A stretch of 64,000 nt of DNA from Nitrospiraceae bacterium (GCA_041748925.1 JBGTCI010000002.1:20086-84085), one strand, 5' to 3'; shown: positions 7,732 to 54,639, counted from the stretch's first letter. Numbers and translations are program-made. The notes: generated by a model from the sequence alone, not told the origin.

Positions 7732-7821
7732 GGTCTATCTGGTCTATTCGGTCTGTCTCGTCTGTTTGGTGGAACAAAACTAACCAGATGAACCAGACAG
7801 ACTAGATAGACCGGATAGACC
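7732..7821. repeat. N9 nonamer-arm hairpin, copy 1
   Basis: Left arm GGTCTATCT GGTCTATTC GGTCTGTCT CGTCTGTTT, a short loop, then a right arm that is the imperfect reverse complement (...CAGACAGAC TAGATAGAC CGGATAGACC). Fills the gap between convergent stops at 7726 and 7837. Confidence 0.9.
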
Positions 7822-7836
7822 AAACGAACAAGACCG

Positions 7837-8160
7837 CTACCGGCGAGAAAAACTTGTTTGCACGTGATCGTCGAAGATATGGGAGAGTCGCTCCCTGTCC
7901 TCCGGACTGATCGAGGTGATCTTCGCTCCGAACTTCGGGGAACGCACGTGGATGACTTGCAGGCCACAGGTCAAGGTTCTCCCTTGCTCAAGTTCAATCA
8001 CGAGTTGGAGCGCATCGCCGCTTTTCACGAACAAGCGGCTTTCAATTCGAACGCCTGTCTCGCTGACATCCAAAACCTTGCACGGCGCCGAAAGGGCCCC
8101 TCGCTGCAGACGGCCGCCCCGGCTTACCTCGACACGTGACCCTTTTCGCTTAAACGCCAT
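7837..8160 (-). CDS. PilZ domain protein
   Basis: 107 aa with RKGSR (RxxxR) and DVSETGV (DxSxxG) motifs. Confidence 0.75.
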   Translation of the reverse strand: MAFKRKGSRVEVSRGGRLQRGALSAPCKVLDVSETGVRIESRLFVKSGDALQLVIELEQGRTLTCGLQVIHVRSPKFGAKITSISPEDRERLSHIFDDHVQTSFSRR

Positions 8161-8231
8161 CGGCTCCGGCCTCCTGTGGTCGACATCTTAGCAAGCGGCC
8201 ACACCGCTCCAAAGGAAATTGCCAAATAAAG

Positions 8232-8615
8232 CTAGAGCTTTTCCCCTGCGAGGGCACGCACCTGTTCCATCCGCTTGCGATTGACGCCAAGATCGCCGTA
8301 GCCGGTGCGGGAAGCGGAACGGAAATGGATGGTCTTGGCTTCGTCGTCGAACAGAAACTCGACATCGTCGACAAAGCGAATCAGCAGGCTGGTGAATTCG
8401 TAATGCAGATACGACTCATCTTCTTCAACAAGCGTGGTGCGGGGCAAGGAACGGATGACTTCCTTGAGTGCCTCCTTCGCCTCAGCCCGCGACTTGCGAT
8501 AGCGAAATGGCGCGATGGCATGGCCCTGATCCTGAGCCTGTGTGGACACACAGTTGGGGCTGGAGGGGCAGGGGGCTAGGGTGCGAAGCGTCATGAAACA
8601 ACTCCCGGCAATCAT
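8232..8615 (-). CDS. DUF1499 family protein
   Basis: 127 aa. CPSSPNCVST...HYEF.S.L.RFVDDVEF motifs match my recollection of DUF1499. The start overlaps the FKBP stop (ATGA), with an alternative start at Met8. Confidence 0.65.
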   Translation of the reverse strand: MIAGSCFMTLRTLAPCPSSPNCVSTQAQDQGHAIAPFRYRKSRAEAKEALKEVIRSLPRTTLVEEDESYLHYEFTSLLIRFVDDVEFLFDDEAKTIHFRSASRTGYGDLGVNRKRMEQVRALAGEKL

Positions 8616-9013
8616 TCAATCGAGGACAGACTCTCAATCTTGCGCGACCAGATCTCACAAATCAACACCGCGTTGGGAGGAATGAGGTCCGGAATGCCTT
8701 TATCTCCGTAGGCCAGGTGGGGACTGATTCGCACTTTCCGATAGCCGCCGGCTTTCGTGCCGATGACGGCATGATCGATTCCCGCGACCGCCTCACGGCG
8801 TCCCAGTACGATCGTGTGATCGATCAAGGGCTCACCATCGACAAATCGTATCAGCTCCTTCGGAAGGGGCTTTGCCTGTGTCTTGTTTAGCGGAGCCTCA
8901 TCACCCTTGTTCAGAAAGAGCCTTATATTGAACATGACACGGTCGCCTTTGTTCGCAGGCACGCCTTCGCCTTCTCGTTCCTCAAGCAATTCGAGACCAC
9001 TGAGTTGTTTCAT
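8612..9013 (-). CDS. FKBP-type peptidyl-prolyl cis-trans isomerase
   Basis: 133 aa. C-terminal GYRKVRISPHLAYGDKGIPDLIPPNAVLICEIW matches the FKBP signature (..iPp.laYG......IPpna.L.fev.l). Confidence 0.85.
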   Translation of the reverse strand: MKQLSGLELLEEREGEGVPANKGDRVMFNIRLFLNKGDEAPLNKTQAKPLPKELIRFVDGEPLIDHTIVLGRREAVAGIDHAVIGTKAGGYRKVRISPHLAYGDKGIPDLIPPNAVLICEIWSRKIESLSSIE

Positions 9014-9017
9014 CTCA

Positions 9018-10127
9018 TTAGTACAAGAACGATCTGGACGTCGCCCCTATCCCTTCCCCCTCCGCCACGACAACGGACACGCGTCCAATAATTCGGCCGT
9101 CTTCCGTTTCGACGTCCACACGCCAATCACCCGGATCTAGTCGTTGCTTGAACGTATAGGTGCGGTAGCCGCCTTCCCGGCCGCCGGAAATCTTGATCGG
9201 AATTTTGTCGGCATGAGTGAAGGGCTTGCCGCTGTTCGTTCTGAAGTACCAATGATGATAAATGGTCGTATTCAAATCGACCGGGGCAAAGACTGCCGTG
9301 AAGCAATAGATCGGCTCGTTGGCCGGGTAGAGGTCATCCGACCGTTTCCAGATTTGATACCACTCTCTCTCGTACGAGAGTTCGAACCGGTCGCCGGTCT
9401 TCTTCACCTCATGGTAGATCCCGCCGAACTTCAGCGAGAGCGGCACAGGCGGAATCCAGTTCAGGAAATAAAACCCAACGAGCAGTCCAATGAGTGTGAA
9501 GGCGGGAGCCGTGACCAGGACCACCTCACGCTTCGAATGATCCGGATTGTTGCGATAGACCAATTGGACCACGCGAAATGTCACGACCGCGCTTAGGACA
9601 GCTCCGACCAGAAAGATCGCCGCATTCATATACCCGGTCATGACCGGGAGAAAGAACGTGAAAAAAGCGAAGCACACCAATGCATAGAGGCTCACGAGGA
9701 GGCGCAGGCTGGAGAGCCGATCACGCAAAAATTCGTTACCGACCAGCAGCACGACCAACAGGGCAAAAAAAACTGCGGTGCTGGTGAGTGTGGCACTCCG
9801 GGAATAGAAAATCGCATACGCGCTGAACAGCCCCCCCAAGAGAAACTGCACGGCCATCGGGTAGAAGGGCCTCGCACGCAGCACCCAACGCACAAACGGT
9901 GAGAACGTGGCTAACTGTTCCCGCTCTGGCGCGGGCTCGCTCCCCAACCGCCCAGTCAGCACGATGAGCACACCCAAGAGGAGCAGATAGATCAACAACA
10001 AGAGGTTGTCCTGCAGTCGGTCGATACGCGTCAGCGTCAGAGTGTCATAGGTCACACCGGAGAAAAAGAACACCGGCGGCATGAAGGGCTTACCCAAAAT
10101 GGTTTTGAGCGTAGAGGAAGGAGACAT
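9018..10127 (-). CDS. Polytopic membrane protein with C-terminal DUF2914-like beta domain
   Basis: 369 aa with about 7 predicted TM helices, then a soluble C-terminal domain (YHHWYF...GGYRTYTFKQ...PGDWRVDV.TEDGR.IG). The DUF2914 assignment is from memory. Confidence 0.7.
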   Translation of the reverse strand: MSPSSTLKTILGKPFMPPVFFFSGVTYDTLTLTRIDRLQDNLLLLIYLLLLGVLIVLTGRLGSEPAPEREQLATFSPFVRWVLRARPFYPMAVQFLLGGLFSAYAIFYSRSATLTSTAVFFALLVVLLVGNEFLRDRLSSLRLLVSLYALVCFAFFTFFLPVMTGYMNAAIFLVGAVLSAVVTFRVVQLVYRNNPDHSKREVVLVTAPAFTLIGLLVGFYFLNWIPPVPLSLKFGGIYHEVKKTGDRFELSYEREWYQIWKRSDDLYPANEPIYCFTAVFAPVDLNTTIYHHWYFRTNSGKPFTHADKIPIKISGGREGGYRTYTFKQRLDPGDWRVDVETEDGRIIGRVSVVVAEGEGIGATSRSFLY

Positions 10128-13437: not shown

Positions 13438-13806
13438 CTATTTCTGATGCGTTTCGAACTGGGAGACCGTCAGGTCGTACTGCGCCCGGCATTCCGCACA
13501 GCGGACCCATACGGCATCTTGGAACACATCCATCTCTCGAAGCGACAAGGCTGGAGCATGGATACCCATACAGGTCTTGAGCGCCGCGAGTCCATCCGGC
13601 TGCGCAGGATCCGGTTTAGGCATAGAGGAGTCCCCTGTCGATACTTGCCTGGTCACCGCATTGGTGGTCACTCGATGCACCATGCGGCATGAACTGCAGG
13701 TCAGCACCACAATGCGTTCCGGCTCGACGCGCTTGACCGTCAGACAGAGCGGGTGTACCGACCAACATTGTTGAAGGAATGCTCCGCTGCGGATAATCTC
13801 AGCCAT
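13438..13806 (-). CDS. Hypothetical Cys-rich protein
   Basis: 122 aa with CSSC near the N-terminal half and CAEC near the C-terminus, a possible split zinc ribbon. Confidence 0.5.
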   Translation of the reverse strand: MAEIIRSGAFLQQCWSVHPLCLTVKRVEPERIVVLTCSSCRMVHRVTTNAVTRQVSTGDSSMPKPDPAQPDGLAALKTCMGIHAPALSLREMDVFQDAVWVRCAECRAQYDLTVSQFETHQK

Positions 13807-13828: not shown

Positions 13829-13963
13829 GGTTGTCTGTCTGGTCCATCTGGTCTGTCTGGTTTCTCTGATTACTTCGTCGAGTTAGTCTGGTTTAATCCG
13901 ATAAACTACCCAATTAAACGAGATAGACCAGATAGACCGAACAGACCAGATAGACCAAATAAA
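13829..13963. repeat. N9 nonamer-arm hairpin, copy 2
   Basis: Left arm GGTTGTCTGTCTGGTCCATCTGGTCTGTCTGG, about 55 nt of central sequence, right arm AGATAGACCAGATAGACCGAACAGACCAGATAGACC. Right end lies 9 nt from stop 13973 (minus-strand gene). Confidence 0.85.
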
Positions 13964-13972
13964 CACGCCTGC

Positions 13973-14308
13973 CTAGATCGCCCAAAGGGCAACCATCACC
14001 AACGCGCCGATTACATAAGGAAGCGCGCATGAATAGAGCAGCGCCGACCACGCGCGGCCCGGTGCCGCATTGCGCGACAATTGTTCCTTGTAGACGAATT
14101 CACGGGAGAGAATCAGCACCGTGAGCGTCAAGGCCAACGTCCGACTTGTCTGCGACCAGGTGTAGGAGCCGCCGATGATGTAATTCGCTGTGAAAAATCC
14201 AGTGAAGAGGAGAATCAGTGGTGCCAGAACGAACCGGACTGACTCGGAAAAGAAGGTGTGCCAACCAAGACGGGCTTCCACCGGGCTTGATTGTGAATGG
14301 GGAGTCAC
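13973..14308 (-). CDS. Small membrane protein (hypothetical)
   Basis: Three predicted TM helices. I place the start at GTG 14308, which overlaps the upstream TGA (GTGA), rather than at the track's ATG 14386. Confidence 0.5.
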   Translation of the reverse strand: MTPHSQSSPVEARLGWHTFFSESVRFVLAPLILLFTGFFTANYIIGGSYTWSQTSRTLALTLTVLILSREFVYKEQLSRNAAPGRAWSALLYSCALPYVIGALVMVALWAI

Positions 14309-14592
14309 GACCCGACAGCCACCGGAATCGCTGTCTTCGGCGACGATGAAGGAGTGCCCCCTTCGGCAGTACGGCAGATCTTGCACACACGAGGGCGGGC
14401 TTTTAAGAAGGAGACTTTGCCGCTGGCCAGGCAGCTATAATGGACAAACTCCTCGCATAAGGCGCAACGGGACCACCCGCCAGTGAACATCGTCTTGTTA
14501 CGGTAGAGCCCTTCCTTGCAGACTGGGCAAATCCGGGGATCAATCCCCAACAGCATCGGCTCCCAGGTTCCGCCGGCTTTTCTAATACTCAT
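14305..14592 (-). CDS. Multi-CxxC zinc-ribbon protein (hypothetical)
   Basis: Start taken at MSIRK (ATG 14592). Contains CPVC, CALC and CKIC motifs. The track's N-terminal extension runs through repeat sequence. TATACT lies 7 nt upstream of the ATG. Confidence 0.55.
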   Translation of the reverse strand: MSIRKAGGTWEPMLLGIDPRICPVCKEGLYRNKTMFTGGWSRCALCEEFVHYSCLASGKVSFLKARPRVCKICRTAEGGTPSSSPKTAIPVAVGS

Positions 14593-14606: not shown

Positions 14607-14672
14607 CGAAGGCGCGAGGCGCGAGGCAAGGGGCGATGGGAGACGTGAGGCGTAAGGCGGTGGGATAGGGGT
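14607..14672. repeat. 7-nt-periodic G-rich tract
   Basis: GAAGGCG CGAGGCG CGAGGCA AGGGGCG ATGGGAG ACGTGAG GCGTAAG GCGGTGG GATAGGG. No complementary arm nearby. Confidence 0.6.
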
Positions 14673-14717
14673 GGTCAAGGCTGCCCTTCACTGCGCGCAT
14701 CGATCGATATACACGTT

Positions 14718-14843
14718 CCCTCCAAGCTTGCTCGTTTTTTCTCTAGGGATGGGGGCTGATTGATCTTCTACTGCGCGCGTCCAACGAGGGCCTTCCGAGG
14801 CCGCGCGTTGCGCGAGCACAGAAGATCATCAGGCTCCATCCCC
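14718..14843. repeat. T-family GC-rich palindromic element, copy T1
   Basis: About 125 nt, homologous to 52990-53114. GGGATGGGGGCTGATTGATCTTCTACTGCGCGCG pairs with CGCGCGTTGCGCGAGCACAGAAGATCATCAGGCTCCATCCCC. Apical GGCCTTCCGAGGCC. A half-copy of T3 lies at 14673-14704. Confidence 0.85.
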
Positions 14844-14851
14844 CGCTCTGT

Positions 14852-14880
14852 TTGACAGCCTCCAGACCATTTGTTACGCT
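14852..14880 (+). promoter_or_regulatory. Sigma70-like promoter upstream of ispA
   Basis: TTGACA, 17-nt spacer, TACGCT, with TG at the extended -10 position (TGtTACGCT). Lies 45 nt upstream of ATG 14925. Confidence 0.45.
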
Positions 14881-15815: not shown

Positions 15816-15822
15816 TCGTCGT

Positions 15823-15921
15823 TCGTGAAACGTATCTCGTGAAGCGCATGATCGCTCATCTTGACAACCAATCCCAATCCCAACGTTTCACGCTTCACGT
15901 TTCACGCTTCACGTCTTCATC
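15823..15921 (+). repeat. Heptamer-arm hairpin (GTGAAA/TTTCAC type) between ispA and the HpnA-like gene
   Basis: Left arm CGTGAAACGTATCTCGTGAAGCG. Right arm CGTTTCACGCTTCACGTTTCACGCTTCACG, followed by TCTTCATC, which directly abuts ATG 15922. Confidence 0.75.
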
Positions 15922-16940: not shown

Positions 16941-17780
16941 GTGAGTGTTGAGTTTTCGTCAACTCAATTGATGGATACGCTTGCCCTATTCTTAAAAACG
17001 ATTTTGTTCCGTCCCTACGTCTTCGTCTTCCTTGCAGCCTTTCTCTTCGCCGCGATCATGCTGATCGGCTGGCCGCGAACTTGGCGCTTCTGGCTGATTA
17101 GCTGGGCCACGGCTTTCGTCTGCGAATTTTCGTCTACGCGCAACGGCATTCCCTTCGGGTGGTACCACTACAATGGTTCGACCGTGGGCCAGGAACTCTA
17201 CTTCTCCAACGTCCCATTCATGGACTCGATCTCGTTCAGTTTTCTGCTGTATGCCGCCTACTGCGTCGCCCTCTGTCTCCTTCTTCCAATCAAGGGATCA
17301 TCTGCTTCCACTCAGCCGATGCTCACACCGCTGCATCTTCATGTGGGCGCGCGAACGAATTGGTCTGTGCTCTTCCTGACAGCCTTCTTGTTTGCCTTTA
17401 TCGATATGGTGATCGATCCCGTCGCACTACGTGGCGACCGCTGGTTCTTGGGGAAGATTTACTATTATCCCGACCCGGGCCTTCACTTCGGCGTGCCGTT
17501 GGCCAACTACGTCGGGTGGGCGGTCGTGGGACTCATTTCTCTCGCTATCTACTTCCCGCTCGAACGCCGACTGCCCGCGCTCTCGCTGCCTCCTTCGGTC
17601 ACGCCTCGACTTCTGTTAGGTGTCGGCCTTTACTATGGCGTCCTGGTCTTTAACCTGAGCGTCACGTTTTGGATCGGCGAATCGTTCATGGGAATGAGCG
17701 GTCTGCTGATGCACCTCCCCGTCATCGCGCTGCTGATGTTTCGCGTTGCACGACCATGTGTCATCTCCCACTCGGGCTAA
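16941..17780 (+). CDS. Polytopic membrane protein, carotenoid-biosynthesis-protein (DUF422)-like
   Basis: 279 aa with about 7 TM helices. GTG start, with an alternative ATG at 16971. The family call is tentative and rests on motifs (GWYHY, ANYVGWAVVG) and isoprenoid gene neighbours. Confidence 0.6.
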   Translation: MSVEFSSTQLMDTLALFLKTILFRPYVFVFLAAFLFAAIMLIGWPRTWRFWLISWATAFVCEFSSTRNGIPFGWYHYNGSTVGQELYFSNVPFMDSISFSFLLYAAYCVALCLLLPIKGSSASTQPMLTPLHLHVGARTNWSVLFLTAFLFAFIDMVIDPVALRGDRWFLGKIYYYPDPGLHFGVPLANYVGWAVVGLISLAIYFPLERRLPALSLPPSVTPRLLLGVGLYYGVLVFNLSVTFWIGESFMGMSGLLMHLPVIALLMFRVARPCVISHSG

Positions 17781-17827
17781 CCCGGTGGCAATCGGATAAG
17801 AGACTTTGTATAGTCATAGCAGTAGTT

Positions 17828-18448
17828 ATGGTAACGAAACTGATCATCTTCATCGCCGTGGTTGGCCTCGGGTTTGTCGGCGCCATCGGATGGATCGGGT
17901 ATCAATTGTTCGCGACCGGATTTAGCGCCAAAACCGAGCCGCATGCATTAGAGGTCTTGGCCGCGCGGCAAATTCGCCGTTTGGCTATCCCGCTCGAACA
18001 GCGAAACGCGCAGAATCCCATCCCGTTGAGCCCTGCCGTGATCAAGGAGGCGCTGGCGCATTTCGCCGACCACTGCGCGCTATGCCATGCGAACGACGGG
18101 AGCGGAGAGACGCCCATCGGCAAAAACGTCAACCCCAAAGCCCTTGACCTGCGGTTACCCGACATCCAATCGATGTCGGATGGTGAGATGTTCTGGATCA
18201 TCCACAACGGTATCCGTTTTACCGCGATGCCGGCCTGGGGAAAGGGTGATCCAGCTGAGGACAAGGACAGCTGGAAGCTGGTCCACTTCATTCGCCATCT
18301 CCCACAACTGACGCCGGAGGAGCTCGAGCAGATGAAGACGTTCAATCCCAAAACGAAGCACGACCTGGAAGAAGAAGCCGCCTTCGGACAATTCCTGCAG
18401 GGAGACGATGGGGCGGCGGCACGGACTGAGACCGGCCATCGTCACTAG
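17828..18448 (+). CDS. Membrane-anchored c-type cytochrome
   Basis: Start moved to ATG 17828 because the track start overlaps the previous gene. N-terminal TM helix, one CxxCH heme motif (CALCH), and a distal Met candidate (FTAMPAWG). Confidence 0.8.
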   Translation: MVTKLIIFIAVVGLGFVGAIGWIGYQLFATGFSAKTEPHALEVLAARQIRRLAIPLEQRNAQNPIPLSPAVIKEALAHFADHCALCHANDGSGETPIGKNVNPKALDLRLPDIQSMSDGEMFWIIHNGIRFTAMPAWGKGDPAEDKDSWKLVHFIRHLPQLTPEELEQMKTFNPKTKHDLEEEAAFGQFLQGDDGAAARTETGHRH

Positions 18449-18528
18449 TCTGGTTTATTTTGTTTATCTGGCTTGTTTGGTTCATCTCGTTAATCTTCCA
18501 ACGAAACAAACCAACCAAACCAACAACG
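18449..18528. repeat. N9-type hairpin, copy 3 (GGTTTRT variant)
   Basis: Starts the nucleotide after the cytochrome c stop. Left arm GGTTTATTTTGTTTATCTGGCTTGTTTGGTTCATCTCGTT. Right arm AACGAAACAAACCAACCAAACCAACAACG. Confidence 0.8.
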
Positions 18529-18954: not shown

Positions 18955-19359
18955 ATGCGCGCAGCGATCATTCGAGTCCTGATCACGGGGATCGCGGTCT
19001 TTCTGGCAGTCATGATCGTGCCCGGCCTTCAGGTCGACTCGTTCCTCGCCGGAATCGCCGTGGTCCTGGTGCTCACAATTCTGAACCTCTTGGTCCGGCC
19101 CATTCTCCTGATGCTGACCCTTCCCTTGATCGTCCTCTCGTTGGGGCTCTTTCTCATTGTGGTCAACGCGCTCCTTCTGGAATTGACCGCATACCTGGTC
19201 ACGGGATTTTCGGTCACGGGATTCTGGCCGGCAGTCGGCGGCTCAGTCGTAATCAGTCTGGTCACCATGATCCTCAACATATGGACCTCTGACCGCCCCC
19301 CGACGGAACGTCCTTCGTTTCCCCAACGCCCGCCCAAGATCATCAACCCCGACGAATAA
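18955..19359 (+). CDS. Phage holin family protein (PF04020, YvlD-like membrane protein)
   Basis: 134 aa. VPG..V.SF..A...VLVL..LN.L.RPIL..LTLP......LGLF..VVNA..L pattern is typical of this family. Four TM helices. Confidence 0.75.
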   Translation: MRAAIIRVLITGIAVFLAVMIVPGLQVDSFLAGIAVVLVLTILNLLVRPILLMLTLPLIVLSLGLFLIVVNALLLELTAYLVTGFSVTGFWPAVGGSVVISLVTMILNIWTSDRPPTERPSFPQRPPKIINPDE

Positions 19360-19366
19360 CGAGACC

Positions 19367-19493
19367 CTGTCTGTCTCGTCTATCCGGTCTGTCTGGTCTA
19401 TTCAGTCTGTTCGGTCTATCTTGTGTGTTTCTTTCAACGAAACTGACCAGAGCACCAGATAGACTAGATAGACAAGACAAACCAGATAGACCC
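19367..19493. repeat. N9 nonamer-arm hairpin, copy 4
   Basis: CTGTCTGTCTCGTCTATCCGGTCTGTCTGGTCTATTCAGTCTGTTCGGTCTATC ... CCAGATAGACTAGATAGACAAGACAAACCAGATAGACC. Begins 8 nt after stop 19359. Confidence 0.9.
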
Positions 19494-19531: not shown

Positions 19532-21385
19532 TTGTTACAATGCCGCGCGCCCGGCTTTCCTAATTCACGAATGACACCCACAGCTCCACAGAGTAAACCC
19601 ATTCCCGACACGCATCTCCAGCGGACCTTGACCTCCGTGATCAACGAGCTGCCGGTCGACTCGGCGCTCGCCGCCGTGTTCCACCGTGACCAAGGCCCGC
19701 TGGTCGGCCATGCCGCACGAGGCTTCACACCTCGCGATATTCAAGCCATCCTCAGAACACTTTCGGCCCACGCCATTGCTGCATCGGCCCCCTCGAACGA
19801 TCAGGAGGGCGGGCGGACTATTCGCCTCCGCTTGATTACGCCGGGCACAAAGTCATTGATCGGGGTTTCCCTCCAGCATCGGAACCGGACATACGGCTAC
19901 CTCGTCATCGGACGAAAAGAGAGCGCCACGTTCGCGAAAAAAGAGAAGAGCTTGATGGAGCAGGCCAGCGACGATGTCACGAAAGCGCTGGATCGCGAAG
20001 GCCTGTTCGATATGAACGTCGTGCTCAGCCGCCCGTTTGTCGCGCACGAACCGGTCCCTCCGGCGCCTTCTCCGGCAGAAATGTTCTCGGCACCGGCGTC
20101 TCAACTCACACCGGAACTCCAAGATAAGGTGATTGCCGCTTTAACGGATGCCAACCAATACGTCGCCTACGATCGCATCTGGGCCTGCCGCTACGATCCG
20201 CTCGCGGGCAATGTCGAAGTCCTGGGGCTAGCCGGTGATCTGAAGAGCGAACAGAAGGACAGTAAGAAAGATCTGAAGCCAGGCCATCGCCTCGCGCTCG
20301 ACAGCTCAGCCTCCGGGTGGGCAGTCCGCCATCGTAAACCACGCGTGGATCACGATCTCGCCTCCACACAGGGGCGATTCCTCGATCATAAGTATCTGTT
20401 CAAAGACCGGCTTCTCTCCTCGCTTGTCGTGCCGTTCTTCGTTCGGGGACAAGTGGGCGGGACCATCACCCTGGCCTCGAAAGAAGCCGGGCGCTACCAA
20501 CAATCGGATGCCCGTACGCTTGAGCCGACGATTGTGAAGATCGCGGACATTCTCCAGGCCCCGATACCGGGACCAGCCAACCAGGTTCCCGCTACTGGAT
20601 CAGCGGGCGCGCCCGGGACAACTATCGCCCCAGGTCCCTCAGAACCCATCATCAGAAAGCAAGAGCGGCAGGCTGCGATCGGCGAGTTCAGCCTGTTCCT
20701 GGCCGCAGAAGTGCGTGAGCCGCTCGCCTCGATCCGCGCCCAATTGGAGGAGGTCACTGGTGAAGGCATCCTCGACTTCGACCCGCAGACGCGCGTCGAG
20801 AACGCGATGCGCGATTTGATTAGGATCGAAGCCATCCTGAACGAGATTCTGGATTTTGCGAAACCGCTCGAGTTGACTCGCCGGCTCCTCCGCATTCCCG
20901 AAGTGATCCAGAGCGCGCTCACGGTCATCGCGACCGATCTTGAAGTCACCAGGATCCAGGTGACCAAGGACTATGCAACGATGATCGCGCCGGTCCGCGG
21001 CGACGAAGCCAAGCTTCAGCAAGTCTTTCTCAGTATTTTCAAGAACGCGTGTGAAGCGATGAACCCCGGTGGGCACCTCCATATTCAGGTCACCCAGCAT
21101 CGCGCGGGGCGCGGCGTAGAAGATCAAATCCTCATCAAGAACGACGGAGCTCCGATTCCAGCGGAAATCGTCGATAAGGTCTTTGAGCCGTTTTTCACCA
21201 CCAAGCGAGCCGGCATCGGTCTAGGCCTAGCTTCGGTCAAGAAGATCGTCGAAGAACATGGCGGCTCGATTGCCATCGGCAGCGCGCCCGGCGAAGGGAC
21301 CACCGTCACCATCCGCCTCCCAGGTCTCAGCCATGGTCCGTCCTATCGAGGACGCGGACGCCGCCGTCCACCGTCACGCCGCTAA
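19532..21385 (+). CDS. GAF-domain sensor histidine-kinase-like protein with degenerate H-box
   Basis: 617 aa, no TM helix, two GAF-like regions. HATPase_c N/G1/F/G2 boxes are intact (FKNACEAM, KNDGAPIP, FEPFFTTK, GIGLGLA). The H-box reads FLAAEVREPL, with Ala392 (20705-20707) where the phospho-acceptor His is expected. Alternative start at 19571. Confidence 0.85.
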   Translation: MLQCRAPGFPNSRMTPTAPQSKPIPDTHLQRTLTSVINELPVDSALAAVFHRDQGPLVGHAARGFTPRDIQAILRTLSAHAIAASAPSNDQEGGRTIRLRLITPGTKSLIGVSLQHRNRTYGYLVIGRKESATFAKKEKSLMEQASDDVTKALDREGLFDMNVVLSRPFVAHEPVPPAPSPAEMFSAPASQLTPELQDKVIAALTDANQYVAYDRIWACRYDPLAGNVEVLGLAGDLKSEQKDSKKDLKPGHRLALDSSASGWAVRHRKPRVDHDLASTQGRFLDHKYLFKDRLLSSLVVPFFVRGQVGGTITLASKEAGRYQQSDARTLEPTIVKIADILQAPIPGPANQVPATGSAGAPGTTIAPGPSEPIIRKQERQAAIGEFSLFLAAEVREPLASIRAQLEEVTGEGILDFDPQTRVENAMRDLIRIEAILNEILDFAKPLELTRRLLRIPEVIQSALTVIATDLEVTRIQVTKDYATMIAPVRGDEAKLQQVFLSIFKNACEAMNPGGHLHIQVTQHRAGRGVEDQILIKNDGAPIPAEIVDKVFEPFFTTKRAGIGLGLASVKKIVEEHGGSIAIGSAPGEGTTVTIRLPGLSHGPSYRGRGRRRPPSRR

Positions 21386-21405: not shown

Positions 21406-21450
21406 GGTGTGTTTGATTTATCTTGTTTATTTGGTTGAGCCAGACAGACC
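21406..21450. repeat. N9-type repeat, copy 5 (truncated)
   Basis: GGTGTGTTTGATTTATCTTGTTTATTTGGTTGAGCCAGACAGACC. The left arm is complete, but only about 12 nt of right arm remain. Lies 20 nt after stop 21385. Confidence 0.6.
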
Positions 21451-22794: not shown

Positions 22795-22916
22795 GACCGC
22801 TCAAAATGATCTTCCAACAAGGCCACAGGCGAAGAAAGCACCGGAGGCGTACCCGCTGGGGTACGTTGAGGATGCTTTCGAGACGAGAACGCAGTTGGAA
22901 GTCATTTTCAGCGGTC
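22795..22916 (-). repeat. P125 element, copy B
   Basis: GACCGCTCAAAATGA...GGAGGCGTACCC-gctg-GGGTACGTTGAGGAT...TCATTTTCAGCGGTC. Its outer stem differs from other copies but remains self-complementary. Ends 2 nt from the TBDR stop (TAG TAG ACCGCTGAAAA on the minus strand). Confidence 0.9.
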
Positions 22917-27748: not shown

Positions 27749-27762
27749 AGGCTATTGAAAAA

Positions 27763-27868
27763 GTCTGTCTCGTCTATCTGGTCTATTCGGTCTGTCTCGT
27801 CTGTTTGGTTGAACGAAACAAACCAGATGAACCAGAAAGACCAGATAGACCGAACAGACCAGACAGAC
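27763..27868. repeat. N9 nonamer-arm hairpin, copy 6
   Basis: Shares the exact 30-mer GGTCTATTCGGTCTGTCTCGTCTGTTTGGT with copy 1. Right arm CCAGATGAACCAGAAAGACCAGATAGACCGAACAGACCAGACAGAC. Lies between the copA stop and the htrA start. Confidence 0.9.
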
Positions 27869-27914
27869 TGACGGTAAACGACTGTAGCCTAGCATGCGTG
27901 CGTCGGAGGCGCAC

Positions 27915-34011: not shown

Positions 34012-34776
34012 CTAAGAGCGTCGATTCGAACCAGTGATCGCCTGCTTAAACACCGCGCGGAGGCCGAAGTAGGCGACGGAATCTTTGAGGTTGGAATAGA
34101 GACGCTTGAAGGTTCCCATGTCCGGGTTGGTAACATATTCCATCGTCAAGGCGATCCGTTCTTCTCCCTCGCCAAGGGGAGTCACCGAATGCCACAGCTT
34201 ATCTCCATTGAAAATCACGAGATCGCCCGGTTGTGTAATGAGTTCCAGATGCCGCGGGGCTTTTACAGGATCATCCTTAAACAGCTCGCAGACCAGTTTG
34301 CATTGTGTCGACTTATCAACGAGCCCCATCAGAATGGTGTAGCGAGCCCCTTTATAGTAGGACGTGTCATAGTGAAACCCGATATGATCCCCCGGCTCCG
34401 TATAGTAATAGAGCGCACAGGAGTGGGGATCGTTCTCAGGGCATTGACTGAGTTTGGCCTGCACCAGTCGGCTCAAGAAATCGATAAAGGCGCCGGATCG
34501 ATAGAGATCGAGAAAGCGCGGGGCCTTCTCCATTACCGTGTAGTAGCTCACGCTCCCGCCCTTTTTATGGCCGGGAATGTAGTTGCGATTCAGCTCGCTC
34601 TTCACCCCTTGTGCCTGCGGGACGAGATGCTCTTCCACCACCGATCGTGAGAGAAACTGTGGGATAACTAGGAACTCGTTCTGGTCCCAATACTCACGGG
34701 AGAGTCGGTCGAAATCCAACCGCTTGACTGCGTCTTCAACCGCTTCAACCAAAGAGCCGACCATGGCTTGATTCAT
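34012..34776 (-). CDS. Fe(II)/2-oxoglutarate-dependent oxygenase superfamily protein
   Basis: 254 aa with an HxD...H facial triad candidate (GFHYD ... LWHSV) in a jelly-roll-like context. Exact family uncertain. Confidence 0.6.
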   Translation of the reverse strand: MNQAMVGSLVEAVEDAVKRLDFDRLSREYWDQNEFLVIPQFLSRSVVEEHLVPQAQGVKSELNRNYIPGHKKGGSVSYYTVMEKAPRFLDLYRSGAFIDFLSRLVQAKLSQCPENDPHSCALYYYTEPGDHIGFHYDTSYYKGARYTILMGLVDKSTQCKLVCELFKDDPVKAPRHLELITQPGDLVIFNGDKLWHSVTPLGEGEERIALTMEYVTNPDMGTFKRLYSNLKDSVAYFGLRAVFKQAITGSNRRS

Positions 34777-39333: not shown

Positions 39334-39429
39334 CTGTCTATCTGGTCTGTCTGGTCTATTTGGTCTATCTGGTTCGGTCCAAACTAGGAAACCAGACAGA
39401 CGAGATAGACCAGACAGACCAGATAGACC
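39334..39429. repeat. N9 nonamer-arm hairpin, copy 7
   Basis: CTGTCTATCT GGTCTGTCT GGTCTATTT GGTCTATCT GGTTCGGTC - loop - CCAGACAGACGAGATAGACCAGACAGACCAGATAGACC. Ends 2 nt from the pdxA stop (39432). Confidence 0.9.
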
Positions 39430-40469: not shown

Positions 40470-40481
40470 TCATTGATCGAG

Positions 40482-40605
40482 CAGGATGCTCAAAAAGGCC
40501 GTTCAGCGCGGCCGCAGCGAGCGAAGATCGGAGGCGTACCCTCAGGGGTACGTTGAGGATCTAAGCGATGCGAGAACAAAGCTGGCGGACTTTTTCAGCA
40601 TCCTG
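40482..40605 (-). repeat. P125 element, copy D
   Basis: 124 nt. CAGGATGCTCAAAAAGG...GGAGGCGTACCC-tcag-GGGTACGTTGAGGAT...CTTTTTCAGCATCCTG. Abuts the CaCA stop (TAA|CAGGATGCTGAAAAA on the minus strand). Confidence 0.9.
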
Positions 40606-41610
40606 TTAAACCCAGTACAGATACACCACATACCCTATATAAAGGATGGCGCTCCCGCTCAGCAACCAGGGCCGCCAGAGAGCGCCCCATGCAGCCTGCG
40701 CCAATAAGAAGGTGGCCGCGGCCACAGCGAGCACCATGGTAATCAATGCCGTCGGGGCCAGCATCCAGTCCGTGCCCAGGAGCCCGATCGAGACCGGAAT
40801 GGTACCCTGAAAGACGATCGCGCCGGTGACATTCCCTACAGCCAGCCGATCCTTCTTTCGGTAGAGCCAGAGAAAACTGTTCGACATCTCGGGCAGCTCG
40901 GTCGCCAGGGGCGCGACCAGGAGGGCCAAGATCAACGGAGAAATCGACAAAGCCCCCGCAATCGTTTCTGCAGCAAGTACGAAGAGATGCGCCCCGAGCG
41001 CGAGCCCGGCCAAGCCAAGGATTCCTTGAACACCGATAAGTCCAAACGATGGAACTGCCGCCTTTCTGGCAAACAGCAGCGGTTCAAGCCCGCTCTCGCT
41101 CCCCTCCTCATCAGTCTCACTGAACTTCAGCTTAACGTAATAGAGATAGAGCCCCACCAACCCGACGGCGGCGACGGCATGCACCGGTCGAGACGGAATA
41201 AACGCACAGACCAGTGCCACGCTGTATGCCGCCACAAAAAAGGAGAGATCGCCCCTCACATCACGATAATTCAATCGAAAGGCGGCGGCTCGCTTGCCCA
41301 GTCCTGCATAGACCACCAGCAAGATGGCTAAGATCGGAATCACCAGGGTGGTCAGCATGAAGGGCGCGCCGAGGATCGCGCCCAACCCCACTTCTGCTTC
41401 GGCACGGCTGTCCCCAAAGAAAATAGCAATGATGGGGATCGACGTTTCGGGAAGTGTGGTGCCGATAGCCGCCAACACACCGCCGATCGCGCCTTCGGAC
41501 AGATTGAATCGCTTGCCCAACCACTCAATGGCGTTCGTGAAGAGCGTGCAGGCGCCCAACGTCACCGCGACGGATACGAGAAACAGCAGTGTATAGAGGA
41601 GGACCGTCAT
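40606..41610 (-). CDS. Sodium/calcium (CaCA family, YrbG-like) antiporter
   Basis: Start at ATG 41610 (MTVLLYTLLF), overlapping the larC stop (ATGA). About 10 TM helices with two alpha-repeat motifs (GTTLPET..., GNVTGAIVFQ). Confidence 0.8.
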   Translation of the reverse strand: MTVLLYTLLFLVSVAVTLGACTLFTNAIEWLGKRFNLSEGAIGGVLAAIGTTLPETSIPIIAIFFGDSRAEAEVGLGAILGAPFMLTTLVIPILAILLVVYAGLGKRAAAFRLNYRDVRGDLSFFVAAYSVALVCAFIPSRPVHAVAAVGLVGLYLYYVKLKFSETDEEGSESGLEPLLFARKAAVPSFGLIGVQGILGLAGLALGAHLFVLAAETIAGALSISPLILALLVAPLATELPEMSNSFLWLYRKKDRLAVGNVTGAIVFQGTIPVSIGLLGTDWMLAPTALITMVLAVAAATFLLAQAAWGALWRPWLLSGSAILYIGYVVYLYWV

Positions 41611-47097: not shown

Positions 47098-47898
47098 TTA
47101 GTCGAGGGCCAGCGTGAGACACTTGCCCGAGCCGCCCGATTTCATGAATTCATCCAGCGGGACTGGATGAGGAAGATAGCCGTTTGAGGTCAACAGCGAT
47201 TCTGTTTCCGGACAGCCTGCGGGCAGCACAACATGTTTCCCGACACAGACGGCATTACAGGCAAACCTGAGCGCCTCAGCTTCCGGCGCCACGAGACGTT
47301 TGGAAGGAGCGATCCGTTCGATAAGTACCTCTTGTCCATAACGATCGAAGGCGGGAGGGAAATACAGAAGTTCACCGCCGCTCAAGGGACACAAGCAGGT
47401 ATCGAGGTGATAGAATCGCTTGTCGACTAGTTCGAGGGGAATGATCTCTCGGTGGAACCAGTCGCTGAGCGTCGAGTACACACGAATGTCCGATCGCTGT
47501 CGGTAGCCACCGAACCAGGTGTCGGGAAATCTCAAGAGGTCTCCAGCCCCCTCGAAGAAGCAACCCGGATCCAACGTGATGACTTCGTACCCCTGTCCAC
47601 GAAACCAGTTCTCAAAGTACGTCTCTTCCTTCTGCCGTTCGGTATAGCGAAAACGGCTCGGCACCGCTTTGCCTCCAGCGACGATACCAGCATTCGCCGT
47701 GAATACGAGATCGGGCAGTCCCGGCACCGGCTTCATCCGTTCCAGCACCACACCCACATCTTGTTCGAGCACTTGCATGAGGTGATGCCATTGGCGGACG
47801 GCCTCGTCTGAATTGACGGCGTTCGAACGGCGCATCCATGGGTTAATCTCGTATTCGATACTGAAATAGTCCGGCGGGCAGACCAGTAGGCGACTCAT
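47098..47898 (-). CDS. Guanidino-group-modifying enzyme superfamily protein, ArgZ-like arginine dihydrolase / amidinotransferase
   Basis: 266 aa. CPPDYF.IEYEINPWM, FYHLDTC, and C-terminal nucleophile context GGSGKC. Confidence 0.7.
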   Translation of the reverse strand: MSRLLVCPPDYFSIEYEINPWMRRSNAVNSDEAVRQWHHLMQVLEQDVGVVLERMKPVPGLPDLVFTANAGIVAGGKAVPSRFRYTERQKEETYFENWFRGQGYEVITLDPGCFFEGAGDLLRFPDTWFGGYRQRSDIRVYSTLSDWFHREIIPLELVDKRFYHLDTCLCPLSGGELLYFPPAFDRYGQEVLIERIAPSKRLVAPEAEALRFACNAVCVGKHVVLPAGCPETESLLTSNGYLPHPVPLDEFMKSGGSGKCLTLALD

Positions 47899-47918
47899 GG
47901 CCTCTCCTCCGACAAAGT

Positions 47919-48007
47919 GTCGGTCGGTTGTTTTGGTTTGTTTGGTTTGTCTCGTTCATTTGGTTGAACAAAACAAACCAGAGAAACCGGATAAACCAAA
48001 TAAACCA
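47919..48007. repeat. N9-type hairpin, copy 8 (GGTTTGT variant)
   Basis: GTCGGTCGGTTGTTTTGGTTTGTTTGGTTTGTCTCGTTCATTTGGTT - loop - AACAAACCAGAGAAACCGGATAAACCAAATAAACC. Ends 3 nt from stop 48011. Confidence 0.85.
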
Positions 48008-48010
48008 CAA

Positions 48011-49255
48011 TCACAGACGGGCTCCAAGCTCGCGCGCTAGCTCGCGCAAAAATGACGCGGCGTCCATCACCAGCCCAACAGCTTGAAAACTTCCTCGATC
48101 CGCGAGTTTCGTCGGGACGGCCGGATTGACATCGACGCAGACGGAAGGAATCGTGGCAGGCAACAAATTGCCCGTCGCCACTGCGTGCAGAGTCGAGGCG
48201 ACGAGCAAGGCGAGTCCGATACCGGAGATGGCTGCACGCATGGCTGCCTGGGCTTCCAGCGAATCCGTGATGACGCCGGGCAGCGGACCGTCGTCGCGGA
48301 TCGTGCCGGCCATGACGACCTGGACACCCCGCCTGACGCAGGCCGCCATAATTCCTGTTTTGATGACACCGGACCTGACTGCTGCTTCGATGCTGCCGAT
48401 GGCCCTGATCCGATTGATGGTTCGCAGATGGTGTTCATGCCCGTGCGGCACGACACGACCAGCCGCGTGCCCATACCCGAGGGATGTGCCGTAAAGATCG
48501 ACTTCCATATCATGGGCGGGCAAAGCGTTCCCGCAGAACAAGACATGGATGAATTCTTCATCGATGAGCCAGGTCAACGCCTCGCGCCCTCCTGCGTGAA
48601 CAATCGCCGGGCCTCCCGCTAGCAGCACCTTGCTCTCCGCTTTCCCCTCACGGAACCTTGTTCGCAACTGCACGAGACGCTTGGCGATGTCGCTGATGAC
48701 AAGTGCGTGGGGACGCTCGGACGAGACCTGCGATTCCATGAAGCTGAACACATCGCGGTCACGGGGCCGCTGGAGGGGAATCACCCGCACGCCGTCACGG
48801 CCGATTACAATCTGCTCTCCCCGCTTCACGTCTCCCATCGGTACGGTCCGAGCAGTCAGGCGCACGAGGTCTACACGAATCCCCAGATCCATCTCGATTC
48901 CCTCCACCTCCACCCACTGGTCACGCACTCGCACCTGAGTGGGCAAATGGGTTGTGGCGTAAAATTCGTCGGGGAAGATACCGTCAGAGGGCGCCGCACT
49001 CAGCCGGCAGTCCCGTTCACTTTCGACCGACGCACCGTGGGGTTGAATGGCATGGAGAATATCGCTGAGCAGTTTCCCGGACGAGGCCCGCACGACAATT
49101 CTGGCGCGCGACGGTTCCTCGCGAGTCTTACCGATTTGCATCTCCTGGAGGTCAAACGTCCCCCCCATCATCAGAATCGTGTCCAGCACCTTCGCCAAGA
49201 TCAACGAATCGATGATATGGCCCTGGAGCAAGACGGTTTCTTGGTCATGCGTCAT
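48011..49255 (-). CDS. LOR/SDH-conserved-region protein (TIGR00300 family)
   Basis: 414 aa. N-terminal LQGHIIDSLILAKVLD.I...GG.F is typical of TIGR00300 from memory. Homologous to the C-terminal part of cyanobacterial ArgZ. Confidence 0.7.
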   Translation of the reverse strand: MTHDQETVLLQGHIIDSLILAKVLDTILMMGGTFDLQEMQIGKTREEPSRARIVVRASSGKLLSDILHAIQPHGASVESERDCRLSAAPSDGIFPDEFYATTHLPTQVRVRDQWVEVEGIEMDLGIRVDLVRLTARTVPMGDVKRGEQIVIGRDGVRVIPLQRPRDRDVFSFMESQVSSERPHALVISDIAKRLVQLRTRFREGKAESKVLLAGGPAIVHAGGREALTWLIDEEFIHVLFCGNALPAHDMEVDLYGTSLGYGHAAGRVVPHGHEHHLRTINRIRAIGSIEAAVRSGVIKTGIMAACVRRGVQVVMAGTIRDDGPLPGVITDSLEAQAAMRAAISGIGLALLVASTLHAVATGNLLPATIPSVCVDVNPAVPTKLADRGSFQAVGLVMDAASFLRELARELGARL

Positions 49256-52788: not shown

Positions 52789-52948
52789 CAGGATGTCGAA
52801 AAAGTCTGCCAGCAATGCGGGGCCTGGTCGATCCTCGATTGCGCGCAACTTTCTCACCCGCCCACCCACTGGCAGATATTTTCACCTACCCTACCCTCCG
52901 ATGGCTTCGCAATCGATTTCCCGAGACGTGCCAGTAGCCCGAGCGAGC
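52789..52948 (+). repeat. Mosaic: P125 left-end fragment plus TTCTCACCC module split by a further insertion
   Basis: CAGGATGTCGAAAAAGTCTGCCAGC... then TTCTCACCCGCCCACCCACTGGCA[about 47-nt insert]GAGACGTGCCAGTAGCCCGAGCGAGC. Compare the uninterrupted copy at 21561-21612. Confidence 0.7.
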
Positions 52949-52989
52949 ACATTCTGTCGTGCGCGTTCCGCGAACACTTCCCATGTGGC

Positions 52990-53114
52990 CCTTCCAAGCT
53001 TGCTCGTTCCCTCTCAGGGATGGGGGGTGATTGATCTCCTACTGCGCGCGTGCAACGAGGGGAGTCTTCGACCGCGCGTTGCGCGAGCACAGGAGATCAA
53101 TCAGTCTCCATCCC
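52990..53114. repeat. T-family palindromic element, copy T2
   Basis: CCTTCCAAGCTTGCTCGTTCCCTCTCAGGGATGGGGGGTGATTGATCTCCTACTGCGCGCG ... CGCGCGTTGCGCGAGCACAGGAGATCAATCAGTCTCCATCCC. Collinear with T1. Confidence 0.85.
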
Positions 53115-53243: not shown

Positions 53244-53257
53244 CCCCGCCTCCCCTC

Positions 53258-53286
53258 TTGACCATTGTTCTAATGCGGACTATTCT
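53258..53286 (+). promoter_or_regulatory. Sigma70-like promoter ending 6 nt before the MarR ATG (leaderless-type context)
   Basis: TTGACC, 17-nt spacer, TATTCT, then ctcgat, then ATG 53293. No SD. Confidence 0.4.
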
Positions 53287-53292
53287 CTCGAT

Positions 53293-53754
53293 ATGGAGTT
53301 GCCGGATCTGAAAGATGATCCCTATCTGAAAGTGCTGCGGCCACTGGTCGAAGCCTATCTGGCCTTCTGGCGCATCGATATTCGCCATATTAAATCTCTG
53401 CGGCTGACGCCTTCACAGTTCGATGTCATTGCCACGCTGGGAGATACGGAGGGCATGACCTGCTCAGAGCTCTCGTCCCATACGCTCGTCACGAAAGGCA
53501 CGCTCACCGGTGTCCTCGATCGCCTCGTCTCCAAAGGCCTGATCCGGAGGGATGCCATGAAACAAGATCGCCGTTGCACCAAGATCTCGTTGACCGCGAA
53601 AGGCGATGCGCTCTTTCGAAAAACATTCGCAGCCCACTTGGCCTTTCTCCGTCCATTCTTTGAGCGGGCGTTACGCCCCGAAGAAGCGGAGCAGACTCGC
53701 GTGTTACTCCTGCGTCTGCGGGATAGCTTTCGCCAGAAGATTGAGGCAATCTGA
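53293..53754 (+). CDS. MarR family transcriptional regulator
   Basis: 153 aa with a winged HTH (LTPSQFDVIATLGDTEGMTCSELS...LVTKGTLTGVLDRLVSKGLIRR..D..DRR). Confidence 0.85.
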   Translation: MELPDLKDDPYLKVLRPLVEAYLAFWRIDIRHIKSLRLTPSQFDVIATLGDTEGMTCSELSSHTLVTKGTLTGVLDRLVSKGLIRRDAMKQDRRCTKISLTAKGDALFRKTFAAHLAFLRPFFERALRPEEAEQTRVLLLRLRDSFRQKIEAI

Positions 53755-53757
53755 CCC

Positions 53758-54513
53758 ATGCACGTCACCATTCTCGGCTCCGGCACGAATATACACCCCA
53801 CGCGAGCAGCTGCGGGCTATCTCGTCCGCACCGACCATACGATACTCTTGGACTTTGGCCCACGCACATTGGCGAATTTACTCAAAACAGGCATGAACCG
53901 GCATCGAATCACCCACATCCTCTTCTCCCATTACCACGCCGATCACTTTTCCGACTTCATCACCTATTTTTTCGACGCGATGATTTTCACCAAATACCAA
54001 GGAGGAACCAGGCCACCGCTCACGGTGATCGGACCCCGGGGGACCAAAAAATTCTTCAAGGCCCTCTTCACTACCTTACCCGGCTTTACGCGCGCGCCCT
54101 TCGCGGTGCATTTCAAAGAAGTGTCGGATCGGGCGTTTACGATCGGAAAGACGACGGTCATTCCTCGAACTGTGACCCACACGCAGAATCTTCATTGCCT
54201 GGGGTATCGAATCGAATATGGCGGGAAGGCTCTGGCGTATTCAGGCGATTCGCAATACTGTGACAGTCTCGTGCGCCTCTGTGGAGACGTCGATCTCGCG
54301 GTGCTGGACTGTTCCTTCCCGGCGAGTCGGCCAAGTCCGGTCCATCTGCATGCCGGCCAATGCGGGCTGGTGGCGAGAGAGGCCGGGGTCGGCCGGCTCG
54401 TGCTGTCGCATTTGTATCCGGTTACCGACCGATACAATGTGCGGGAACAGGCAGGGGAAGCATTCGGGGGAAAGATAGTGGTTGCGCGGGACTTAATGAC
54501 AATCAAACTCTAG
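53758..54513 (+). CDS. MBL-fold metallo-hydrolase (RNase Z/ElaC-like)
   Basis: 251 aa with the HxHxDH motif (HYHADH) and downstream His/Asp ligand candidates. Confidence 0.8.
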   Translation: MHVTILGSGTNIHPTRAAAGYLVRTDHTILLDFGPRTLANLLKTGMNRHRITHILFSHYHADHFSDFITYFFDAMIFTKYQGGTRPPLTVIGPRGTKKFFKALFTTLPGFTRAPFAVHFKEVSDRAFTIGKTTVIPRTVTHTQNLHCLGYRIEYGGKALAYSGDSQYCDSLVRLCGDVDLAVLDCSFPASRPSPVHLHAGQCGLVAREAGVGRLVLSHLYPVTDRYNVREQAGEAFGGKIVVARDLMTIKL

Positions 54514-54517
54514 GGGC

Positions 54518-54639
54518 CTGTCTATCTGGTCTATTTGGTCTATCTGTGCGATGAGCAAAAAAGACAACCTCCGGTCCGGATTACCCGATCTATCTGATCA
54601 GTCAATTCAACCAAACAAACCAGACAGACCAAATAGACC
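54518..54639. repeat. N9 nonamer-arm hairpin, copy 9 (large central insert)
   Basis: CTGTCTATCT GGTCTATTT GGTCTATCT G ... about 70 nt ... AACCAAACAAACCAGACAGACCAAATAGACC. Fills the gap between convergent stops at 54513 and 54645. Confidence 0.85.

Follow-up and report, generated by a model that had tools for sequence, protein, structure and literature searches.

N9, a dispersed foldback repeat with tandem-nonamer arms in Nitrospira, looks like a selfish repeat and not a transcription terminator

Nine hairpins with arms of tandem 9-nt units, named N9, lie in a 64,000-nt stretch of Nitrospiraceae DNA (GCA_041748925.1, JBGTCI010000002.1:20086-84085), referred to here as the window. In each, GGTCTRTCT nonamers are arrayed on the 5' side and their reverse complement on the 3' side, with a short spacer between the two arrays; across the family a copy measures approximately 45-135 bp and has 3-13 tandem GGTCTRTCT units and a spacer of median 17 nt. 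The nine hairpins are genuine copies of one repeat family, and all were recovered where an original prediction, made from the sequence alone, had placed them. Tandem Repeats Finder (TRF) detected paired period-9 arrays in the window at 7732-7822, 13833-13961, 19369-19491, 27763-27868, 39336-39429, 47932-48007 and 54520-54639, with a weaker pair for copy 3 (18449-18524), while copy 5 (21406-21450) is a short remnant read directly in the sequence. The 18-mer double unit GGTCTRTCTGGTCTRTCT, allowing up to three mismatches, was matched 40 times in the window versus 0.08 expected from shuffles; all 40 matches fall in eight of the nine listed elements and none in remnant copy 5. The single 9-mer unit was matched 37 times versus 2.4 expected, and an inverted-repeat search of the window returned arms of 39-53 nt which were 72-92% complementary. 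When RNA of the neighbouring gene's sense strand was folded and scored against dinucleotide shuffles, seven copies were strong (-32 to -68 kcal/mol, z = -4.7 to -12.5) and copies 3 and 5 folded weakly (z = -2.7 and -2.8). Stems of 35-45 bp, predicted for the whole set, were therefore upheld for about six copies and not for the rest. The sharing between copies 1 and 6 is real, with an exact 38-mer in common where a 30-mer had been reported. The architecture and the pairing of the arms in several registers were borne out, as was the attribution of spurious open reading frames (ORFs) to the 9-nt period, GAC-AGA-CCA reading DRP and TCT-GGT-CTA reading SGL. No Rfam family matched N9 at the gathering threshold.

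Genes flanking the window copies were checked with Pfam and NCBIfam. Copy 1 (7732-7821, z = -6.3) has four GGTCTRTCT units, the core TGGTGGAACAAAACTAACCA and five reverse units, and lies 16 nt 3' of a PilZ gene (7837-8160, minus strand). Copy 2 (13829-13965, z = -7.8) has a central spacer of approximately 60 nt and is placed between two co-directional minus-strand genes, 10 nt from the stop of 13973-14386 and 23 nt from the start of 13438-13806. The degenerate T-rich variant GGTTTRTTT makes up copy 3 (18449-18528), which abuts the stop of a cytochrome c gene (17669-18448, plus strand) and has a DUF5666 gene downstream. Copy 4 (19367-19493, z = -6.5) follows the stop of a holin-like gene (18955-19359, plus strand) by 7 nt and precedes a histidine kinase gene (19532-21385, plus strand), and copy 5, with three T-rich left units and one right unit, is located 20 nt 3' of the same kinase gene. 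Copy 6 (27762-27869, z = -8.0) has the same subfamily core as copy 1, is followed by TTTTT on the sense strand, and lies 46 nt from the stop of a P-type ATPase gene (27915-30455, minus strand), with an HtrA gene (26318-27748, minus strand) on its other side. The most perfect copy is copy 7 (39334-39429, z = -12.5), with 39-nt arms that are 92% complementary; it lies within a string of pdxA, a 108-aa gene and ksgA, 2 nt past the pdxA stop, and its last unit adjoins the next gene's ribosome-binding site, AGGAG. Copy 8 (47919-48007, z = -5.1), of the T-rich type, separates an ArgZ-like C-terminal gene (48011-49255, minus strand) from an arginine dihydrolase gene (47098-47898, minus strand), and these two genes together match both parts of the cyanobacterial bifunctional ArgZ. 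Copy 9 (54518-54639, z = -4.7 and -5.3), with a central spacer of approximately 65 nt, fills the convergent gap between an MBL-fold gene (53758-54513, plus strand) and a transglutaminase-like gene (54645-55715, minus strand).

Closeness to stop codons was confirmed, all nine window copies being 0-46 nt from the stop of a supported gene. Copies 2, 3, 4, 6, 7 and 8 essentially occupy the entire spacer between co-directional genes, the start or ribosome-binding site of the next gene being 11-39 nt downstream, and each downstream gene in the window with a clear start retains its own ribosome-binding site outside the element. Two copies had been described as filling convergent gaps; this was verified for copy 9 and not for copy 1, since the ORF that would make its gap convergent (7390-7791, running into the copy) matched no Pfam or NCBIfam family. 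The approximately 380 nt at 7351-7731, between the start of an AdoMet-decarboxylase gene (7350) and copy 1, hold no supported gene.

The window was compared by blastn with loci fetched from other genomes, which are given L numbers (L004, L101 and so on). At least seven other genomes contained the core of copies 1 and 6 (approximately 70-105 nt; 87-93% identity) between unrelated flanks, and when 16 core copies were aligned the centre, TGGTTGAACGAAACTAACCA, proved strongly conserved and the number of outer units variable. At the site of copy 7, orthologous N9 copies are present in L101, L121, L122, L124 and L145, while L125 and L126 have an empty site downstream of pdxA, with a 28-34 nt spacer containing a ribosome-binding site; lineages at 72% protein identity have no element and those at 79% or above have N9 in varied forms. 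At the site of copy 8, the ArgZ-like pair overlaps by ATGA in L213, L215, L216 and L217, relatives at 78-85% identity. At the site of copy 9, a gap of 3 nt without an element separates the MBL-fold and transglutaminase-like genes in L217 and L218, and 20.7 kb of syntenic DNA from a Nitrospira relative with this site empty contained no N9 array. One copy of N. moscoviensis is likewise filled in L040 and empty in a related metagenome-assembled genome (MAG; L053). On these alignments N9 copies are insertions, because orthologous sites are empty in relatives, and they have spread by copying of master sequences. The arrays were ordered forward then reverse 69 times and in the opposite order four times, all four being neighbouring elements; a fixed order is what the defined ends, or terminal inverted repeats, of a mobile element would give.

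Orthologous sites also show persistence, arm-length change in 9-nt steps, loss and replacement. Copy 7 is shared with L101, a MAG in which the flanks are approximately 80% identical and in which the arm beside the downstream gene is longer by about four units and the arm beside pdxA shorter by one. In L127 one arm has been lost at this site, and in some lineages it holds a T-rich form in which GGTTTGTTT is paired with AAACAAACC, both arms having changed and 1-3 G-U pairs being present. Between a four-helix-bundle gene and a nusG-like gene, different Nitrospira vary in array length (2, 4, 8 or 16 units), so that variation in unit number between orthologous copies, as the original prediction had anticipated, was seen.

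A second dispersed repeat family, fam2, measures approximately 125 nt, has inverted ends of 20 nt (CAGGATGCTGAAAAAGGCCG...CGGNCTTTTTCAGCATCCTG) and is represented in the window at 6240-6368, 22799-22913, 33882-34015, 40477-40609 and 59527-59655. As N9 does, it fills gaps directly past stop codons, and it is present in other Nitrospira loci. The two families occupy the same sites: that of copy 8 holds fam2 in L210, L211 and L214 and N9 in the window and L212, and a site upstream of pdxA holds fam2 in the window and N9 in L101 and L121 and is empty in L123-L126.

Several further repeats were observed. The flanks at the site of copy 8 contain an apparent, diverged duplication of approximately 18 nt of the old ribosome-binding-site/ATGA region, which is common to the unrelated fam2 occupant; at window 47898-48011 this duplication apparently uncouples the ArgZ-like pair in the window's clade, the spot then having become a landing site for repeats. 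Hairpins with N9 architecture and a different unit, (GTGAAAC/GTGAAGC)n facing (GTTTCAC)n, are found at 2956-3059 and 15816-15921, where these 7-nt-unit arms fill intercistronic gaps in an RND efflux operon (HlyD-like/AcrB) and in a polyprenyl synthase/epimerase pair. Other dispersed repeats of approximately 100-200 nt, at 14668-14852, 52822-52956, 52990-53114 and 58138-58343, show 82-92% identity with loci in other Nitrospira MAGs; a match to the same stretch of L091 puts 14717-14840 and 52990-53114 in one family. A Nitrospiraceae MAG has approximately 140-180 nt extra at L099 2954-3171, the orthologous L119 1681-1718 and L027 7236-7313 having 37-77 nt.

Gene context was counted with crude, uniform gene calls on the window and 61 loci, the latter comprising Nitrospira/Nitrospirota matches and six hairpin-bearing contigs assigned by their records to other phyla. 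Sixty-eight N9 copies could be classified (50 co-directional, 13 convergent and 5 divergent), a mix not significantly different from the intergenic background of 267, 47 and 37, respectively. Three of the divergent cases have Pfam-validated flanking genes. Most apparent cases of N9 inside a gene are start-codon mis-calls arising from the open frames of the element. In four MAGs a single continuous ORF runs in frame through an N9 copy, with a Glyco_transf_9 heptosyltransferase domain on one side and a HAD/GmhB-like phosphatase domain on the other (L004 1782-1899, L079 2279-2360, L010 471-561 and L088 2764-2872); the copy's 27-40 codons read GLSGLS...QTDQTD, in a frame preserved despite the differing lengths. 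The claim that N9 occurs only 3' of genes was not supported, the context mix being that of the background, with divergent copies and one orthologous locus in frame within an ORF. The places at which small self-folding inserts can be tolerated best explain this placement, since the context mix equals the background and since gaps are filled likewise by fam2 and by the heptamer hairpins.

A scan of 185,579 species genomes with a 23-mer of the N9 unit returned at least 119 loci, and about half of the matches listed, N. moscoviensis and N. lenta among them, were from Nitrospira or Nitrospirota. The window itself is from a Nitrospira MAG, and two of its proteins fall in clusters labelled Nitrospira or Nitrospiraceae. 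The paired hairpin layout was present in nearly all Nitrospira/Nitrospirota loci and was largely confined to them, while matches in Desulfobacterota-like MAGs, WOR-3 and others were mostly one-sided arrays. Six copies were found within one 8-kb stretch of N. moscoviensis, and the copies of this organism have a signature of their own, with GCGCAC bulging from one of the arms and arms of unequal length, a long one facing a short one, which suggests genome-specific subfamilies. Extrapolated from the window, with its nine copies per 64 kb, the copy number of a genome would be in the hundreds. Viral contigs gave only five matches and no link to phage.

Taken together, we give a probability of roughly 60% to the reading of N9 as a non-coding family of foldback repeats dispersed through Nitrospira/Nitrospiraceae, resembling both repetitive extragenic palindromic (REP) doublets forming hairpins (REPINs) and MITEs (miniature inverted-repeat transposable elements), copied into and tolerated in short spacers; it looks like a selfish repeat and not a transcription terminator. 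A master sequence is copied into new sites with no visible target duplication, probably by a hairpin or single-strand-based movement like that of REPINs (by analogy, PMC3116915). Copies then stay at a site for long periods, during which slippage adds or removes 9-nt units, and residents drift to T-rich forms, lose an arm or give way to another small repeat family. Adjacency to stop codons would come from copies occupying and nearly filling very short intercistronic and convergent spacers, where in a compact genome a self-folding insert of approximately 100 nt should do the least harm. The stem may also hold the upstream stop near the downstream ribosome-binding site, which would account for its tolerance. 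Once transcribed, the 30-45 bp stems would be double-stranded RNA and likely RNase III substrates or exonuclease barriers, by analogy a putative side effect. REP elements and intercistronic hairpins of phage T7 are known RNase III substrates or exonuclease barriers.

Several observations weigh against N9 being a selfish foldback repeat. No target-site duplication was seen at the nine copies or in the comparisons of filled and empty sites, no excision intermediate was seen, and Pfam and NCBIfam detected no transposase or REP-associated tyrosine transposase (RAYT) gene among approximately 50 window proteins. For one subfamily, the alignment of 16 core copies indicated stronger conservation of the loop than of the arms, which hints at sequence-specific recognition, and the long retention of copies together with T-rich forms in which both arms have changed could reflect selection for pairing. 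One-sided nonamer arrays upstream of starts in other phyla would not be predicted from a purely selfish Nitrospira element, and the gene calls in the compared loci are crude.

One alternative, which we regard as improbable, is that N9 is a selected RNA element, either a processing or stability signal or a terminator lacking a U-tract, that tunes expression of neighbouring genes. The very stable predicted stems argue for it, as do the position of copies 0-46 nt past stop codons, the U5 tract at copy 6, the retention of copy 7 across lineages with flanks only approximately 80% identical, and the T-rich orthologues in which both arms changed and pairing was retained with 1-3 G-U pairs. The predicted folds also provide at least 20 bp of near-perfect double-stranded RNA, as expected of an RNase III hairpin, transcription being assumed from operon context. 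Three tests of the hairpin, however, gave no sign of selection on it. Among 50 co-directional copies the sense-strand RNA was the more stable in 18 and the less stable in 32. Permutation of right-arm units left fold stability unchanged (72 elements, mean difference +0.09 kcal/mol), from which it follows that A/G and C/T variants of one arm are not mirrored in the other; a mismatch count for mirrored unit variants between the arms likewise gave no signal. The consensus fold of the 16 core copies had double changes at only 4 of 28 pairs. A selected RNA element also fits poorly with core orientation relative to transcription, which was mixed, with copies inside operons whose genes overlap in relatives, with sites that are empty or hold an unrelated repeat in close relatives, and with the divergent-spacer copies and the one in frame in an ORF.

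With respect to termination, stems of 30-45 bp with T5 at copy 6 and T4 at copy 1 are not the short G+C-rich stem and U-tract of an intrinsic terminator, and the elements do not mark the ends of transcription units, copy 7 being inside pdxA-ksgA and copy 8 between genes which overlap in relatives. The statement that no copy has a U-tract stood for most of them and not for copy 6, followed by TTTTT, or copy 1, followed by GAGTTTT (both on the sense strand). The terminator function proposed for the family was not supported, copy 7 being within pdxA-(small gene)-ksgA and copy 8 having neighbours that overlap by ATGA in relatives; a terminator role for these two copies is unlikely.

Other readings of the hairpins were tried. 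Orientation of the core of copies 1 and 6 had no consistent relation to GC skew as a measure of replication direction, gene strand dominating in short loci. CRISPR, iteron and DnaA-box readings were rejected because they do not match the spacing, the sequence of the unit or the dispersed layout of single hairpins.

A second alternative, to which we give as little credence as to a selected RNA element, is that the nonamer itself is functional, GGTCTRTCT/AGAYAGACC arrays binding a trans-acting factor and the hairpins being two such arrays head to head. The putative bound forms would be (AGACAGACC)n and (GGUCUGUCU)n arrays, as RNA or DNA, and the factor might for example be translation-related and act just upstream of starts, as proposed for TAACTGA heptamers (PMC4679880, a published analogue in its favour). 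One-sided arrays of up to 26 units in Desulfobacterota-like MAGs, WOR-3 and Nitrospira are the principal evidence for it. The long ones are located at L036 7389-7586, L089 487-720, L009 3706-3858, L110 2610-2771, L081 2874-2999 and L003 4521-4619 and in L014, L026 and L090, and usually present sense-strand (AGAYAGACC)n 0-25 nt before a start codon, often without a Shine-Dalgarno motif. A co-oriented gene start lies within 40 nt downstream of (AGAYAGACC)n in 19 of 41 one-sided arrays versus 6 of 41 with the opposite arrangement. In many cases no more than 12 nt separates the array from the apparent start, which has no Shine-Dalgarno motif, the start-codon calls being uncertain. Unit variants that are not mirrored between arms would, moreover, place any constraint on the unit and not on pairing.

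Genes downstream of arrays were diverse (GlyS, RtcB and cytochrome c among them) and had no common theme except four-helix-bundle genes of TIGR02436/PF05635, the protein family that ORF-containing 23S rRNA intervening sequences encode. These genes have nonamer arrays on both sides in Nitrospira, a delta-proteobacterial MAG and WOR-3, and such embedding in three phyla also speaks for a functional nonamer. Array-flanked examples are L041 4185-4562, L004 6746-7099, L037 7633-7995, L201 1501-1881 (N. moscoviensis), L202 1501-1896, L090 423-797, L014 3636-4006 and L003 4164-4520, and in Nitrospira the array downstream of the TIGR02436 gene precedes an UpxY/NusG-like gene. A search of genes between distant inverted arrays found only the four-helix-bundle gene and no transposase. 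The one-sided arrays and the TIGR02436 genes keep the protein-binding function proposed earlier alive.

Against a functional nonamer, window downstream genes with clear starts keep their ribosome-binding sites outside the element, slippage homogenises units without selection, and we know of no protein that binds the nonamer. The sharing of the unit across phyla may stem in part from having searched for that exact unit, and the orientation bias could be tolerance, as the AGAC strand has neither start codons nor self-pairing. A more specific form, which we hold to be less likely still, treats the nonamer array as a cross-phylum cis-element read by a trans-acting factor, for which the TIGR02436 protein would be a candidate. 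Here (AGAYAGACC)n directly 5' of start codons would serve Shine-Dalgarno-independent initiation, and the Nitrospira foldback would join the upstream stop and downstream start at the base of the stem, allowing ribosomes to re-initiate across the hairpin. If true, re-initiation would explain how a 100-nt insert is tolerated between genes that overlap in relatives.

Finally, local origin of every copy, through slippage expansion in a small hairpin already at the site and with no transfer between sites, is very improbable and largely refuted: arms do differ by 9-nt steps between orthologues, and the heptamer-unit hairpins in the window indicate that array growth in hairpin arms may be general, but unrelated loci in different genomes share an irregular core of 70-105 nt (ATTC, CGTCT and GTTT variants, loop GAACGAAACT), copies 1 and 6 have their exact 38-mer in common, empty orthologous sites contain no proto-hairpin, just overlapping or 3-nt-apart genes, and array order is fixed (69 versus about 0). 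The suggestion of slippage in place of transposition therefore gives way before insertions absent from relatives and one core at 87-93% identity at unrelated loci; slippage shapes the arms and does not explain the origin.

In soils, waters and treatment plants, nitrite is oxidised mainly by Nitrospira, which are also the complete ammonia oxidisers there, and a dense N9 family affects assembly, binning and gene calling in their genomes through long spurious ORFs and wrong start codons, while at one locus N9 is apparently a real in-frame linker. Copies could be used as strain markers because unit number differs between strains, and 30-45 bp of double-stranded RNA inside operons would be predicted to affect mRNA processing. 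The sharing of sites by N9 and fam2 offers a tractable case for studying the movement of small non-autonomous repeats and the places in compact genomes at which they are tolerated.

Among known systems, N9 may be compared with REPINs (REP-BIME, BIME being bacterial interspersed mosaic elements), in which REP doublets form hairpins and are dispersed by RAYT transposases (Bertels & Rainey 2011, PMC3116915). Both are extragenic elements of approximately 100 nt with two inverted blocks and a spacer, predicted hairpins in single-stranded DNA and mRNA, and no target duplications; both reach approximately hundreds of copies per genome (for N9 by density, 9 per 64 kb), with subfamilies that point to copying from masters. 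N9 differs in that its arms are variable-number tandem arrays of a non-palindromic 9-nt unit, whereas a REP is a single imperfect palindrome of 20-40 nt with a GTAG head, which N9 lacks, and in that no RAYT gene was linked to it among the approximately 50 window proteins.

Bacterial MITEs (Correia/NEMIS, ERIC, RUP, BOX and Nezha) are likewise small non-autonomous inverted-repeat insertions in intergenic and intercistronic spacers, are co-transcribed with neighbours (predicted for N9) and differ in presence between relatives. N9 has terminal inverted repeats as they do, given its array order (69 versus 4), but no visible target-site duplication, and its arms are internally repetitive and change in length. 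Nor was a parent insertion sequence found, the sole gene seen between arrays being the TIGR02436 four-helix-bundle gene. The N9 copies in frame within the heptosyltransferase/GmhB-like ORF recall the in-frame palindromic elements of Rickettsia.

Rho-independent terminators share with N9 a stem-loop past a stop codon; N9 stems are 3-4 times longer, have no U-tract in 7-8 of 9 copies, and lie inside operons in either orientation. The RNase III hairpins of the T7 early region and the intervening sequences of 23S rRNA are long, near-perfect stems between functional RNA segments. The predicted stems of N9 are also long, near-perfect and so placed, but cleavage is established in those systems and putative in N9, with no evidence that N9 was selected for processing.

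Cyanobacterial short tandemly repeated repetitive (STRR) heptamers are comparable short-unit tandem repeats. Arrays of the heptamer TAACTGA are found upstream of starts in Beggiatoaceae, Cyanobacteria and Bacteroidetes (MacGregor 2015, PMC4679880). The one-sided nonamer arrays resemble these in being intergenic, of short unit and often abutting starts in one orientation, with a patchy distribution over several phyla and no link to gene function. N9 is likewise an intergenic tandem array of a unit in the 5-11 nt range, far longer than chance, but the window copies are inverted pairs and not direct arrays, and the 9-nt unit has another sequence.

In architecture alone, N9 resembles eukaryotic foldback transposons (Drosophila FB, Galileo), with long inverted arms of short tandem repeats (PMC3573991), arm lengths that vary between copies and a short or variable centre, although these are eukaryotic, kilobase-scale and have known transposases. 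A full-text literature search found no description of N9 elements in Nitrospira. Dispersed palindromic intergenic repeats and simple-sequence arrays are already known kinds; what appears to be new is the combination of tandem-nonamer foldback arms, genus-wide occurrence in Nitrospira and sites shared with another repeat family, an architecture that bridges simple-sequence arrays and palindromic mobile repeats, which are usually treated apart.

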